From NCBI GenBank assembly GCA_963785725.1, contig CAWAWS010000024.1, forward strand, positions 64,001 through 128,000: a stretch of 64,000 nt of DNA, in the 5' to 3' direction. Below, piece after piece: positions 7,032-40,943 of the stretch; the first letter of the stretch is position 1, and each line of letters opens with the position of its first letter. A model generated the notes under the pieces. It had not been told where the DNA came from. It did no database searches and saw only the letters and a program-made list of their open reading frames with translations. Position numbers and translations under genes: made by a program. This stretch comes from an uncultured delta proteobacterium. Its GTDB lineage: Bacteria; Myxococcota_A; Polyangia; Palsa-1104.

Positions 7032-8327
7032 CTAGCCGTCTTTGTCTTTTTCGGGCTCGCCCGGCGGCTCGAGCGGCAGCCAGACGATGAACTCCGCGCC
7101 CTGGCCCGGCGGCCGCGATCCCAGATCGATGCGCCCGCCGTGCGAGCGCGCAATCCGCTGCGAAATCGCCAAGCCGAGGCCCGTGCCTTCGCCGACGTCT
7201 TTGGTCGTGAAGAACGGGTCGAAGATCTTCATCGCCAGCTCGGCCGGCACGCCCGGGCCGTTGTCGCGCACGCTGACGCGCACGCCGTCGCCGTCGGGCC
7301 CCGCCGAAATGTAAATTTCGCCGCCCGGCCCCGCCGCCTGCGTCGCGTTCGTCAGGAGGTTCATGAAGACCTGCTGCACCTGCCCGCCGCGGCAACGCAC
7401 GCGCGGCAGCGGCGAATAGAGCCGATGCACGGTCACGCGATCGCGCATCATCGGCGCCAGCAAGTGCAGCGTCGTCTCCAGGCCGGCGATGAGGTCGGTC
7501 TCCTCGATCTTGCCCACTTGCGGCCGCGAGAACGCCTTCAGGCCGGCGACGATCTGCGCCGTCCGCTCGGCGCCGGCGCGCACGCTCTTCAAGAGGCGCT
7601 CCCAATCCTCCATCAGGAACTCGAAGTCGATGCTCTCTTTGAACGCCTGCGCTTCGGCGCGCGTCTCGTCCGTCAGCTGCGCCGCTTCGTAGAGCCCGAT
7701 CAAGTTGATGAGATGGCGGAAATACTGCGCCAGGAAGTCGACGTTGCCGTAGACGAAGTTGATCGGGTTGTTGAGCTCGTGCGCGATACCGGCGACGAGC
7801 CGGCCGAGCGACGACATCTTCTCGTTCAAGACCAGCTGATCTTGCGCGCGGCTCAGCGCTTCGGTGCGCTCGAGGACTTTGCGCTCGAGATCCTCTTTGA
7901 CGCCGCGCTCGCGCGCCAACAGCGAGTGATACTTGCGCTGCACGCGCGACTCGGCCGTGACGTCGCGATAGGTCTCGAGCACGAGGCCGTTGCCGAGCGG
8001 CGTCGAGGTGACGATGAGCGTCAGGTCCTCGCCGTCGCCGCGGCGCGCGTGAATTTCGTGCATGCGCAGCGGCTTTCCGACGGCCACCGCGCGCCGCATG
8101 ATGCAGCTCTCGGCGCAGATCTCGAGGTTGAACAGCTTGTGGCACGGCGTTCCCGCCGCCGCCGCCGCCGCCACTTCGCGCGGACGCCGGCCGGTATAGG
8201 CGTCATAGGCCGAGTTGCGATAGAGGACATGATGCTCTTGATCGAGGATGACCGCGGCGTCGACGGCGCCTTCGAGCACGCGCTTCAGGTCGGCGAGCGC
8301 ATCATCGGCTGGGTTGATCGTCGTCAT
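7032..8327 (-). CDS. Cytoplasmic PAS sensor histidine kinase (NtrB-like)
   Basis: [52 protein letters not shown] domain has [14 protein letters not shown]. Confidence 0.95.
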
Positions 8328-8890
8328 TCGCCACCGCTCGGATTCAATTCAGCCTCGGCCAAGAATGACAGATAACGCTCGGGCAGCTCGTCGAACACGA
8401 GCACGCCGCCGCAGCGCCGACAGCGGAACGCCGGCACGTGCGCTTGCCAGTCGGGCGCCGCGCGGCCGGCGTCGTCGCGCTCGAATTGGTCGCCGAAGTG
8501 CTCCTCGACGTCGAGCAGCTTGTATTCGTCGGCGCGGCACGCTTCGCAAACATAAGGCGCCAAGAACGAACGCACCCGCGCGCGGCCGCGAAAGTTGAAG
8601 ATGGTGTTGAGCTGTAGAACGACCGGCGGCGAGCAGCGCACGAACCACAGCGTCCGCACGGCGTCGAGCCCGCGCACGAAGTTGACCCACTCGCGCACGC
8701 CGCAGGAGTTGATGCGCGTGACGCCTTCCAAGCCCATCTCGACGTCGCCGCGCAACCGCTGGCGCAGCTCGGAGAAGTCGGCGTTCTCGTCGATTTCGCC
8801 GCGTAGCTCGACCTGCAAAGCGCCATGATCCTCGCCGACCACACGCCAGCTGAACGGCTCGCCTCCGCCGCCAGCGTAACTAGTGCCCAT
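8324..8890 (-). CDS. STAS-like (anti-anti-sigma-like) domain + zinc ribbon protein, soluble
   Basis: [19 protein letters not shown] resembles the STAS G-x-LD..(F/Y)IDSSG pattern. C-terminal CEAC and CRRC pairs. Confidence 0.75.
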
Positions 8891-8948
8891 CTAACCCTGG
8901 GGTTGGTCCTGTGTCGCGTGCTTGTAGTGCTGCTTGCATCGCGCGCGC

Positions 8949-9867
8949 TTATTGAGCGTTGGGCTGCCAGTAGAGTGACTTCAGCTCGGGCATGCCGGGA
9001 TCGAGCGTCGGCGCCACGAGCACGTCCTGATCCTCGATGCGGACGACCTCGGGCTCGACCATGACCGGCCGCCGCGTCTTGCCGCCCATGCGCGACGCCA
9101 GCGCGCGGTAGGGCTCGCCGCCGGCCGCCTTCCAGCCGTCGAGGCCGGGACCGGCGGCGCCGTGACCGAGCACCGCGGCTTTGACCTTGGCCACGAGATC
9201 GGGCGCCAAGCCGGTGGCGACCTCACAGAACGCCGGATTGGGCACGCGATCGCGCACTTCGAACAGCACCTTCAAGCCCTTGCCTTGGCTCTCGGGCGCG
9301 AACACGGCGTCGGCTTTGTGCAGGTTCACCGCCGCGACCGCGGCCGCGATGTCCGGCGCCGGCGCGCGCGAGGCGAAGAACTTGGCGACCTGCAATTCAC
9401 CGTCGAAGAGCGCGTTCGACAGGAAGTCGGCGTCGCGCGGACCGGAGGCGGCCAGGCTCAGCTTCTTGCCCTGCAGGTCTTCCACTTTCGTCACCGAGCC
9501 GGAGAAGAGCGCCCACTTCGGCGCCACGTCGCCGCCCGACGTCGCCGTCGCCAACACCTGCCACGGCACGCCACGCTGCGCCAGGTAGACGCCATCGACG
9601 ACCGCGAAATCGACCTGCTTGGCCTTGATGGCGTTCTCGAGAATCGGCGGCGCGCGCGAACGCCTTGCCATTCGCCGGCACGCCCAGCGACGTCACCTGC
9701 TGCGCGAGGCGATTGACGAACGCATAGCGCTCGGTGCCCGAATCGAACGGCGCATTGGGCGCGTAGATGGCGATGGTGATCGCCTTCTCGGCTGCGTGCG
9801 CGCTCGTCGCGGTCACGACCGCCGCCAACGAAGCCACCATTGTTGCGAGGGCGAACCGGAAAGTCAC
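8949..9867 (-). CDS. Periplasmic substrate-binding protein, PhnD/phosphonate-binding-like (apparent frameshift ~9642)
   Basis: Signal peptide (..SAHA/AEK), VEDLQGKKL, AVNLHKADAVF, VPNPAF. GTGA overlap with the upstream TPR gene. Confidence 0.7.
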
Positions 9868-39837: not shown

Positions 39838-39893
39838 TACGGAAACGTACCGTAAGCCGCACTTCTTACATGTGCAAGTACAGACCGCGTTCA

Positions 39894-39921
39894 TTGACTT
39901 CCTCTGACAATCCGCTACGAT
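39894..39921 (+). promoter_or_regulatory. Putative sigma70-type promoter
   Basis: TTGACT-N16-TACGAT. Confidence 0.45.
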
Positions 39922-39924
39922 GGA

Positions 39925-40943
39925 TTGCCCCGCGAATCTGGGGTAGGAGCCACGACTCTGAGTCAAGCGGCCCCCACGCAGCGCATCCTCGCTATCGCCG
40001 AAGATCCTGCTTCGCTCGAACGCATCGCCTCGGCAATCCAAGCTGGTGGCGCAACGCCCGTTCTCGTGCGCAGCTCGAAGATGCTGGAAACGGCGCCCGA
40101 TCAGCTGCCGTTTCGCTTCGCCGTCTACGCCTTCGACGGCTCCGACGAGCACCTGAAGCTGGTGACGTCGAAGATGCGCGACGGCGCGCAGCTCGTCGGC
40201 GTGACCCCGCCCGCGAACCTGGCCAAGCTGACCCGGCTGCTCGACGATCCGCGCTGCAACCACGTGCTGACCGCCGACGACGCCGGCTTCGCCACCGTCG
40301 CCATCACCGTGCAGAAGTTCGTGACCGGCGACCTCTTCGGCATCGAGAAGTATCTGCCGCGGCGACGCCGCCGTGCACCTGACGCGACTGCGCGAATACA
40401 AGGGCCGCACCGCCGCCATCGACGAGGTGCTCGCCTACGCCGAGAAAGTGGGCGTGCGCCGGCAGGTGCGCTCGTCGATCGGCCAGGTGTGCGAAGAGCT
40501 GCTGATGAACGCGCTCTACGACGCGCCCGTCGACGAGCACGGCACGCCGATGTTCGCCGAGGTCGAGCTCGAAGGAGCGCCTCGACAAGCTCTCGCCGCG
40601 CCCGGTGTCGATCCGCTACGCCGCGACCGAGAACGGCTTCGCGGTCTCCGTGCGCGATCGCTTCGGCCGCCTCGATAAGGCGACCGTGCTGCGCTACATC
40701 GACAAGTGCCTGCACTCGCCGCAACAGATCGATCGCAAGACCTACGGCGCCGGCCTCGGCATCTACCTCGTCGCCAACGCCGCGACGCAGTTCGTGCTCA
40801 ACGTCGCGCCCGGCATGGCGACCGAGGTCGTGTGCACCTTCGATCGCAAGAACGCGCGCTCGCCGCTGCGCGCGCTGTCGGTGTTCGTCTATCCGGGAGG
40901 CGCAGCGCAGCAGCCAGCTAGCAGCGAGTCGCAGGCGGGCTAG
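39925..40943 (+). CDS. Pseudo-receiver + HATPase (anti-sigma-kinase-like) protein, paralog 2 (apparent frameshifts ~40360, ~40571)
   Basis: EELLMNALYDAPVD, VRDRFGRL, GAGLG are shared with 26441..27382. Start may be CTG at 39958, 8 nt after AGGAG. Confidence 0.7.

Follow-up and report, generated by a model that had tools for sequence, protein, structure and literature searches.

Partner switches are usually viewed as regulators of sigma factors, with SiaABCD of Pseudomonas aeruginosa and a few others as exceptions. In SiaABCD, a PP2C phosphatase and a GHKL kinase are combined with SiaC, a STAS-fold target whose phosphorylation site lies where helix 2 begins (PMC7647112, PMC8457831). The output is an enzyme, the cyclase SiaD, rather than a sigma factor; SiaC uses N67-T68-S69 to bind the helical stalk of SiaD, and phosphorylation blocks this binding (PMC8457831). 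Here we describe a gene cluster with the same three kinds of protein in a 64,000-nucleotide (nt) stretch of DNA from an uncultured delta proteobacterium of the Polyangia (assembly GCA_963785725.1, contig CAWAWS010000024.1, positions 64,001 to 128,000), which we call the window. We regard the cluster as a genuine and conserved variant of the STAS partner switch, widespread, SiaABCD-like and apparently uncharacterised.

The RsbU-RsbV-RsbW and SpoIIE-SpoIIAA-SpoIIAB systems of Bacillus provide the best structural matches for the STAS part and the GHKL domain of the window proteins and share with them an equivalent serine and a SpoIIE-family phosphatase (PMC8256260). The phospho-acceptor serine of anti-anti-sigma factors is established (SpoIIAA S58; PMC8256260), and SiaC T68 and 4QTP S58 are described at the start of helix 2 (PMC7647112). 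Partner-switch chemistry acting on enzymes and not on sigma factors is also described for HenR-Alr3423-All4160 of Anabaena (bioRxiv 10.64898/2026.04.08.717354), and the stressosome-cyclase system of Moorella wires it to an enzyme (PMC4976288); both use different protein families. In myxobacteria, PMC2887360 records one HAMP-SpoIIE orthologue group in three species, the HAMP-SpoIIE protein MXAN_4562 of M. xanthus, and STAS fusions to Hanks kinases in Sorangium; the excerpted sections of that paper give no function for the group or for the fusions. No description of STAS-zinc-ribbon proteins or of this operon was found in the literature, covered mostly at abstract level with supplements and subscription papers outside.

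Results

STAS proteins with a four-cysteine tail

The window lies on a 226-kb contig (C24) of an 8.9-Mb assembly in 47 contigs and has a G+C fraction of about 0.64-0.73. Homologues that carry names come from metagenome-assembled genomes of Polyangia, Myxococcales and Kofleriaceae. A preliminary description of the window had reported four copies of one domain in three genes. The four domains are homologous and each has two CxxC pairs, but the consensus proposed for them fits three of the four, the last one (S3b) reading IDPAG. The genes of these STAS-Cys4 proteins are:

8324..8890, minus strand: S1, soluble STAS-Cys4 protein of 188 amino acids (aa); Ser62 in INSCG (8705-8707); CxxC pairs at 8537-8548 and 8411-8422
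16651..17586, minus strand: S2, tail-anchored STAS-Cys4 protein; Ser58 in INSCG (17413-17415), low-complexity linker, C-terminal transmembrane (TM) helix
27379..29616, plus strand: S3, two STAS-Cys4 domains (S3a and S3b), TM residues 402-432, and an outer region with a weak PDZ match at its end

The corresponding serine of S3a is Ser64 in ISSFG (27568-27570). S3b has a proline at this place (28117-28119) and lacks both the serine and the ID-E motif. A relaxed STAS-Cys4 pattern recovered all four copies and one further copy in the genome, with no match in 100 codon-shuffled windows; three more STAS-Cys4 domains lie beyond the window.

Profile comparison (48 rows) relates the STAS part to 4hyl (E 6.6e-7) and TM1442 (E 9.6e-5), with N-S-C-G falling on D-S-A-G of TM1442. 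C2H2 zinc-finger matches of the full profile were dismissed as CxxC pattern matches. In the AlphaFold model of S3a (mean confidence score, pLDDT, 93.8) the serine stands at the start of STAS helix 2. The model resembles 4hyl (VIA Z 10.9, root-mean-square deviation (rmsd) 2.4, 105 aligned), RsbV (Z 10.7, rmsd 2.4, 96 aligned) and SpoIIAA (Z 10.5, rmsd 3.0, 107 aligned), with SiaC below RsbV at Z 8.2, and Foldseek concurs with these matches. A Ser/Thr that starts helix 2, as in acceptors of the RsbV/SpoIIAA type, is found in S1, S2 and S3a. The acceptor serine is kept in 42/48 STAS-Cys4 domains, and the six without it are each the second domain of a tandem.

The two-pair cysteine pattern fits 43/48 domains. 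Two CxxC knuckles are arranged around a beta hairpin (strands 105-112, 117-124 and 148-151, pLDDT at least 90), which is the architecture of a zinc ribbon. The four-cysteine tail appears zinc-ribbon-like and may bind zinc. The wider family comprises 3,862 representatives at 50% identity (E up to 1e-10) and has no curated family model of its own; Atlas clusters that look like S1 are commonest in Bdellovibrionota and Myxococcota.

Domain fusions were counted in 48 long homologues chosen from the best 150. Twenty-eight carry a Hanks kinase and 13 a FIST sensor (one has both), one a GAF-adenylate cyclase and one only a PDZ domain, while six have no Pfam match. The Hanks fusions therefore support the idea of a Ser/Thr-kinase output for the tandem S3 type. 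The FIST domains, up to four per protein, are fused to tandem STAS-Cys4 (P0283-P0389, L020:3885-11021), which suggests a soluble-ligand input. Elsewhere in the genome, on contig C7 (L005:8261-9415, minus strand), a receiver and a PilZ-like domain (TIGR02266) are fused to a C-terminal STAS-Cys4 domain with its acceptor serine kept (RISSDS), possibly a link to an input by cyclic di-GMP (c-di-GMP).

Receiver-GHKL kinases

Two genes of the window encode the putative kinases:

26441..27382, plus strand: K1, 313 aa, intact; degenerate receiver (about residues 5-123) and SpoIIAB-like GHKL domain (about 135-296), no DHp
39925..40943 (start codon uncertain), plus strand: K2, a K1 paralogue in three frames, with breaks near 40362 and 40567

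As previously noted, K1 and K2 share ELxMNALYDAPVD, DRFG and GAGLG, and neither has a HisKA match. The motifs of K1 are E179-x3-N183, D231-x-x-G and G260-x-G-x-G. Its AlphaFold model (pLDDT 94.6) shows a receiver (VIA Z 15.6 against receiver domains) followed directly by a Bergerat domain with no DHp, and the GHKL domain superposes on SpoIIAB (VIA Z 15.6, rmsd 2.9, 136/141 residues). By these models S3a has the RsbV/SpoIIAA-type STAS fold and K1 a receiver with a SpoIIAB-type GHKL domain, the folds on which the earlier proposal had been staked beforehand.

Over 40 kinases, 39 retain E179 and 39 retain N183, and all 40 have D231 and the three glycines. The Bergerat fold lacking a DHp domain, the E-x3-N box, DxxG and GxGxG are together those of RsbW/SpoIIAB-type kinases. 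A histidine precedes the N box in only 7/40, and the HisKA/DHp domain and conserved histidine of histidine kinases are absent. In the receiver, where the alignment is loose, Asp is found in 27 of the 40, Ser/Thr in 15 and Lys in 7. Since the aspartate is kept in 27/40 and the acid pair and the lysine are not conserved, the receiver, judged from the alignment, is degenerate rather than fully dead. K1 itself has a weak PF02518 match only, three paralogues pass the PF13581 cut-off, and a comparison of the kinase profile with the STAS profile gave no homology.

The genome encodes seven K1-type kinases, and in three places a kinase gene overlaps a STAS gene or almost touches it. One case is K1-S3, where an ATGA overlap bears out the previously suggested translational coupling. 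The others are on contigs C16 (L001:8310-10917, two kinases in tandem; GTGA overlap) and C38 (L003:3281-4763; 4-nt gap), where short STAS-Cys4 genes whose motif reads ISSLG are coupled to kinase paralogues; these two places have neither a phosphatase nor a PAS gene alongside. Contig C14 has two kinase paralogues 4 kb apart (L004:7777-9048 and 13054-14199, both minus strand) in a region without a STAS gene. One of the two is extended at its C-terminus by a stretch that includes a hydrophobic helix, and it falls together with the S2-flanking kinases of relatives.

Trees were built with IQ-TREE and midpoint-rooted; K2 itself was omitted because it is broken. K1 falls with other S3-adjacent kinases, which suggests from the tree that K1 pairs with S3. 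Kinases upstream of a giant TPR gene in relatives group with one C14 paralogue (79% support) and K2 orthologues with the other (99%), and in the STAS tree S2 is the orthologue of the core-operon STAS. Because of these trees, the window probably holds several sub-modules and the kinase of S2 may be encoded on another contig. Thus the window would be three paralogous sub-modules rather than one circuit.

The membrane phosphatase and its gene run

The single Cache-HAMP-SpoIIE phosphatase that had been described is present, position 12362 being its 3' end, and it heads a gene run with a STAS gene: PP2C, TPR protein, binding protein, S1 and a PAS histidine kinase. The first three genes are:

12362..13947, minus strand: phosphatase, TM-Cache-TM-HAMP-SpoIIE; three frames, extra bases near 13216 and 12976
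9864..12362, minus strand: TPR protein of 832 aa, its N-terminus resembling a signal peptide; the gene overlaps that of the phosphatase (TAATG)
8949..9860 (start approximate), minus strand: periplasmic binding protein of PhnD/SsuA type; extra base near 9642

The SpoIIE domain is of the RsbU/SpoIIE type (PF07228, E 1.3e-42). Its metal motifs GGDWW, GDVTGHG, TDG and DDIT are intact in the window and in every one of the 16-17 rows examined. PF12974 is matched by orthologues of the binding protein, whose gene is conserved after the TPR gene; the only PDB match of the family is 7t1m (E 1.4e-6). The binding protein also has a weak match, far under the cut-off, to a model of the sterol-binding BstB (E 9e-4), which makes a lipid-like ligand a lead.

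Both the phosphatase and K2 are split by frame breaks. Such breaks are numerous across the assembly and also affect the ATP synthase genes of the window:

43452-49798, plus strand: bactofilin gene, then ATP synthase genes; frame shifts in atpA, atpG and atpD show the indel rate of the assembly

The reading frames of the phosphatase and K2 are unbroken in close relatives, and short-read contigs have one base fewer at 9642, 12974-12978, 13216, 18372 and 40567; the first break of K2 (near 40362) is visible in spanning contigs just as a gap. Because the relatives are unbroken, the short-read contigs one base shorter, and atpA, atpG and atpD shifted as well, the splits are most likely assembly errors by single-base insertion. 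A reading of the two genes as pseudogenes was rejected in view of the intact relatives and the short-read contigs.

The three families occur together

One set of 250 genomes, a sample at the level of the phylum, was searched four times with protein profiles; the genomes are related and a sample, and no p-value is claimed. STAS-Cys4 matches were found in 46 genomes, 40 of them strong; the other six were weak plain-STAS matches (E 1e-6 or worse, no Cys tail) and were excluded. The kinase family is present in 39 genomes, all within these 40 (G211 has no kinase), and the phosphatase family (profile E 1e-60) in 33, again all within the 40, leaving seven STAS-Cys4 genomes without it. Neither family was found in the other 210 sampled genomes. 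In 18/40 genomes the whole triad lies within 15 kb of one STAS gene. Co-occurrence in other genomes, on which the preliminary description had also made its case depend, is thus what the sample shows, together with clustering.

Three gene layouts emerged from 40 mapped regions. Layout A, seen in several families, runs STAS-TM, optional PAS, Cache-HAMP-PP2C, exported TPR, binding protein and kinase; in G126 it is reduced to five tightly packed genes and nothing else. Layout B (G043, G231, G214, G117) consists of kinase, STAS, PAS-GGDEF(-EAL) and Hanks-AAA-GAF-SpoIIE, and these kinase-STAS-PAS/GGDEF-SpoIIE cassettes of four relatives are like SiaABCD. Layout C (G179, G178, G199) has STAS fusions, a Hanks-STAS fusion, kinase and SpoIIE. 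There is no phosphatase nearby in G182. Layouts B and C keep the kinase and STAS with a differing SpoIIE phosphatase, and among the genomic evidence nothing speaks more strongly for a working triad than this retention of SpoIIE phosphatases, in three different architectures, next to kinase and STAS. The family keeps kinase and phosphatase over at least three gene layouts while its outputs change. With the folds, this supports the divergent phosphatase/STAS/HATPase triad with a sigma-less output that had been suggested, and we consider the triad itself highly probable.

The GHKL proteins could instead be non-phosphorylating ATPase switches or scaffolds, the STAS serine being modified by Hanks kinases or not at all and the phosphatase having other substrates. 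Hanks kinases do lie on either side of K1 and K2, and they also occur fused with tandem STAS-Cys4 domains:

24037..25296, minus strand: STK1, Hanks-type Ser/Thr kinase by domain match, divergent from K1
25318..26346, minus strand: exported TPR-PEGA protein by domain match, between STK1 and K1
39421..39840, minus strand: stand-alone receiver protein, divergent from K2; same position in two relatives
40946..43387 (end approximate), plus strand: STK2, Hanks-type Ser/Thr kinase with TM and PEGA, 2 nt after K2; several frame breaks

Moreover, the E-x3-N box is common to GHKL ATPases in general. However, STAS-Cys4 is found in every kinase genome (39/39), kinase and STAS genes are closely joined three times in this genome, and the acceptor serine is present in all 42 first or single domains. 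We regard such non-phosphorylating ATPases as quite improbable.

A Cys-rich PAS-stalk family beside the STAS genes

Two further genes of the window share a Cys-rich PAS domain followed by a helical stalk:

7032..8327, minus strand: PAS histidine kinase with Cys-rich PAS, helical stalk, HisKA and HATPase (Pfam PAS_4/HisKA/HATPase_c); ATGA overlap with S1
14049..14591, plus strand: PAS180, Cys-rich PAS and stalk, lacking an enzyme domain; paralogous to the N-terminal part of the 7032 kinase

They are the only two strong PAS members in the genome (E 7e-78 and 8e-55; next 6e-8), and both flank STAS genes. Three cysteines mark the subfamily (in 66, 66 and 65 of 70), with an R-x-[DH]-E motif and a near-invariant stalk Gln (68/70); a control for this Gln on generic PAS linkers gave 13 motifs only, too small for use. 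No PDB match to the PAS-stalk profile was found at E 1e-5.

Among the 250 genomes there are 26 strong PAS matches in 23 genomes, all with STAS-Cys4; nine genomes with weak matches only (E 2e-15 or worse, eight of them without STAS-Cys4) were excluded from these counts. The PAS gene lies within 1.5 kb of a STAS gene in 24/26 cases, at 10 kb in one and on another contig in one, and for matches outside the profile-building set 7/8 lie within 0.6 kb. The domain carries a histidine kinase, a GGDEF or no enzyme at all, and the GGDEF form occurs in four genomes from four families. Across families, the Cys-rich PAS genes (7032, 14049) are the most specific STAS neighbours. From one paralogue class to the next, STAS and PAS distances covary (r 0.98 in 70 pairs, with a permutation maximum of 0.17). 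This covariation therefore points to two genes passed on and copied together, and is not proof of protein contact.

No sigma factor near the cluster

The genome has 72 sigma-70 region-2 matches, none of them on contig C24, in agreement with the earlier statement that the neighbourhood has no sigma factor. A cognate sigma factor in or beside the operon, typical of canonical partner switches, is therefore absent. A profile from 52 of the sigma-70 matches found two in 2.0 Mb of 120 loci, compared with about 8 per Mb genome-wide; the loci overlap in part and are related to one another. Separately, a canonical RsbW-STAS-SpoIIE trio (PF13581, PF01740 and PF07228 in a row) lies at G000:C14:198656-200709.

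A canonical switch could still operate in trans. The receiver-GHKL proteins would then be LvrC/RsbW-like anti-sigma factors, and a sigma factor encoded elsewhere would be freed by STAS-Cys4. In line with this, the GHKL domain is nearest SpoIIAB, the top Foldseek match of K1 is Leptospira LvrC (E 3.4e-9; SiaB is at 5.5e-4), the Atlas look-alikes of K1 carry PF13581, and the 72 sigma-70 matches offer candidates. On the other hand, sigma-70 genes are scarce near the 120 loci, and STAS-Cys4 domains either carry a tail anchor or are joined to enzymes by fusion or coupling (Hanks kinase, GGDEF, histidine kinase, PilZ). Because of these anchors and fusions the STAS protein itself is the better candidate for the effector, and we find a sigma factor in trans unlikely.

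Close relatives and the envelope genes

Directly upstream of S2 lies a long gene:

17696..23927, minus strand: giant cytoplasmic TPR protein of about 2080 aa; extra base near 18372

We tallied 80 loci of close relatives, all with close orthologues of S2 and none from a cultured organism, using for each count those loci with enough flank. The giant TPR gene precedes S2 in 66/69 and a kinase lies upstream in 41/45, while PAS is near in 33/73 and the phosphatase in 23/50. The preliminary description had listed TPR scaffolds, Ser/Thr kinases and envelope proteins as possible outputs. The TPR position and the Hanks fusions speak for the first two; the PAS genes at 7032 and 14049 were missing from its list.

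These counts could also mean that a membrane complex is the main output, S2 and S3 recruiting the giant TPR protein and Hanks kinases according to their phospho-state, with PAS genes as later add-ons. All S2/core-operon STAS tails that were listed finish with a TM helix, a strong PAS match is missing from five genomes with a compact core operon, and more than half of the long homologues chosen (28/48) are Hanks fusions, all of which would fit. But no giant-TPR match adjoins the STAS gene in G108, G126, G161, G246, G176 and G188, where the upstream genes checked were unrelated; the close relatives are mostly one family; and S1 is soluble and coupled to the PAS-kinase. Such an envelope machine seems to us an improbable main output, though slightly less so than a sigma factor in trans.

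Discussion

Proposed mechanism

Our preferred explanation is a sigma-less, SiaABCD-like phospho-switch in which the STAS protein itself is the effector on partner enzymes; we put its probability at roughly 0.6. Folds, catalytic motifs, the helix-2 serine, gene couplings and co-occurrence are the observed part of this explanation, and the signal, the phospho-cycle and the partner steps are what we infer from them. The exported TPR protein and the binding protein would pass an external signal on to the phosphatase through its Cache domain, as the gene order suggests. The membrane phosphatase would remove the phosphate from the STAS serine and the receiver-GHKL kinases would add it, and the unphosphorylated STAS protein would bind and switch its partner.

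By analogy with SiaC, which binds the SiaD stalk (PMC8457831), the likeliest partner of S1 is the Cys-rich PAS-stalk of the coupled histidine kinase (7032-8327), on which S1 would dock to gate this kinase. The N-S-C of the window STAS proteins resembles SiaC N67-T68-S69. Whether the PAS-kinase is the output of S1 is, on this analogy, an even call. For the tail-anchored S2 the candidate partners are PAS180 and the giant TPR protein, and those of the K1-S3 pair are the Hanks kinases on its flanks; S3b, which lacks the serine, could be a constitutive docking copy.

Several points weigh against this explanation. The best whole-protein structural match of K1, LvrC, is described as an anti-sigma factor, and the sigma-70 matches elsewhere in the genome are possible targets in trans. 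A strong PAS match is missing in 17/40 STAS-Cys4 genomes, compact five-gene operons included (G126, G161, G246, G176, G096), so PAS is not a universal output; near S2 it is also far less regular than the giant TPR gene (33/73 versus 66/69). The r of 0.98 is explicable by shared ancestry and co-duplication. A single output is at odds with the frequent fusion of tandem STAS-Cys4 to Hanks kinases. The S2-kinase assignment has just 79% support and the grouping of S1 with cyclase-linked STAS domains just 75%, and the related genomes of the close-relative tally, mostly one family, are not independent. Five of the 48 domains depart from the two-pair cysteine pattern, two with a wider second pair and three without the first pair. 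The support for the signal-delivery step is gene order.

More broadly, and tentatively, STAS-Cys4 of Myxococcota and Bdellovibrionota might be a general phospho-adaptor: via a dedicated three-cysteine PAS-stalk dock it would bring a range of exchangeable enzymes (histidine kinase, diguanylate cyclase, Hanks kinase, adenylate cyclase, PilZ) under the control of a partner switch. Here it would gate a histidine kinase directly, through a metal- or redox-sensitive interface between the Cys4 tail and the Cys3 PAS. If true, the PAS-stalk dock would give a rule for the choice of effector by STAS proteins and would link STAS Ser phosphorylation directly to two-component and c-di-GMP signalling in predatory bacteria. 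Since no membrane helix is predicted in S1, K1 or the 7032 PAS-kinase, the central claims can be tested in vitro and culture of the host is not needed.

Other genes of the window

Between PAS180 and S2, a 579-aa polytopic membrane protein (14598-16337, plus strand) has no Pfam match; no homologue was found in the relatives' loci of a first tally, some of which were anchored on another STAS copy. S3 is followed by an envelope run (29619-38596, plus strand) of TPR-PEGA, a FadL-type porin, an unknown protein, a TraB-like/TSP3/OmpA protein (frame break) and a TonB-dependent receptor. The order TraB-like, OmpA, TonB between K1-S3 and K2 is kept in three relatives, and FadL in two. At 2738-4354 (plus strand) a frame-broken FHA-(GAF)-adenylate cyclase gene adjoins a HAMP histidine kinase (172-2277), and at 57023-58666 (plus strand) a multiheme cytochrome-like gene with several CxxCH motifs lies near a ribosomal-protein and tRNA-methyltransferase cluster.

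Comparison with known systems

The phosphatase is not a member of the SiaA family (NF038263, 50.4 bits against a cut-off of 700), and K1 and S1-S3 have no Sia-type family at E 0.01 in Pfam or NCBIfam. A stalk-bearing diguanylate cyclase beside the STAS gene, as in SiaABCD, is absent from the window, although PAS-GGDEF proteins stand there in the four layout B genomes. The window also differs from SiaABCD in the Ser acceptor, the Cys4 tail, the tail anchors, the receiver on the kinase, the PAS ahead of the stalk, the putative histidine-kinase output and the extra TPR and binding-protein genes. From the Bacillus systems it differs in having no co-encoded sigma factor, in STAS proteins with a four-cysteine subdomain, tandem copies and membrane anchors, in a kinase with an N-terminal degenerate receiver, and in several paralogous sub-modules.

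Leptospira LvrC (PDB 9qih) and K1 are alike in a receiver that is directly followed by a Bergerat domain (PMC13269768). The receiver of LvrC is canonical and phosphorylated, and the role proposed for the protein is to retain a sigma factor (PMC13269768), whereas the K1/K2 family has an unconserved acidic pair and lysine, so that a canonical phosphorylatable receiver is lacking, and is tied to STAS-Cys4 and PP2C genes. Unlike the Anabaena and Moorella systems, the window family has the Cys4 tail and a dedicated PAS-stalk family that would join STAS to interchangeable outputs. Sigma-less partner switches are already known from SiaABCD and Anabaena All4160; what is new here is the families and their wiring, not the principle.

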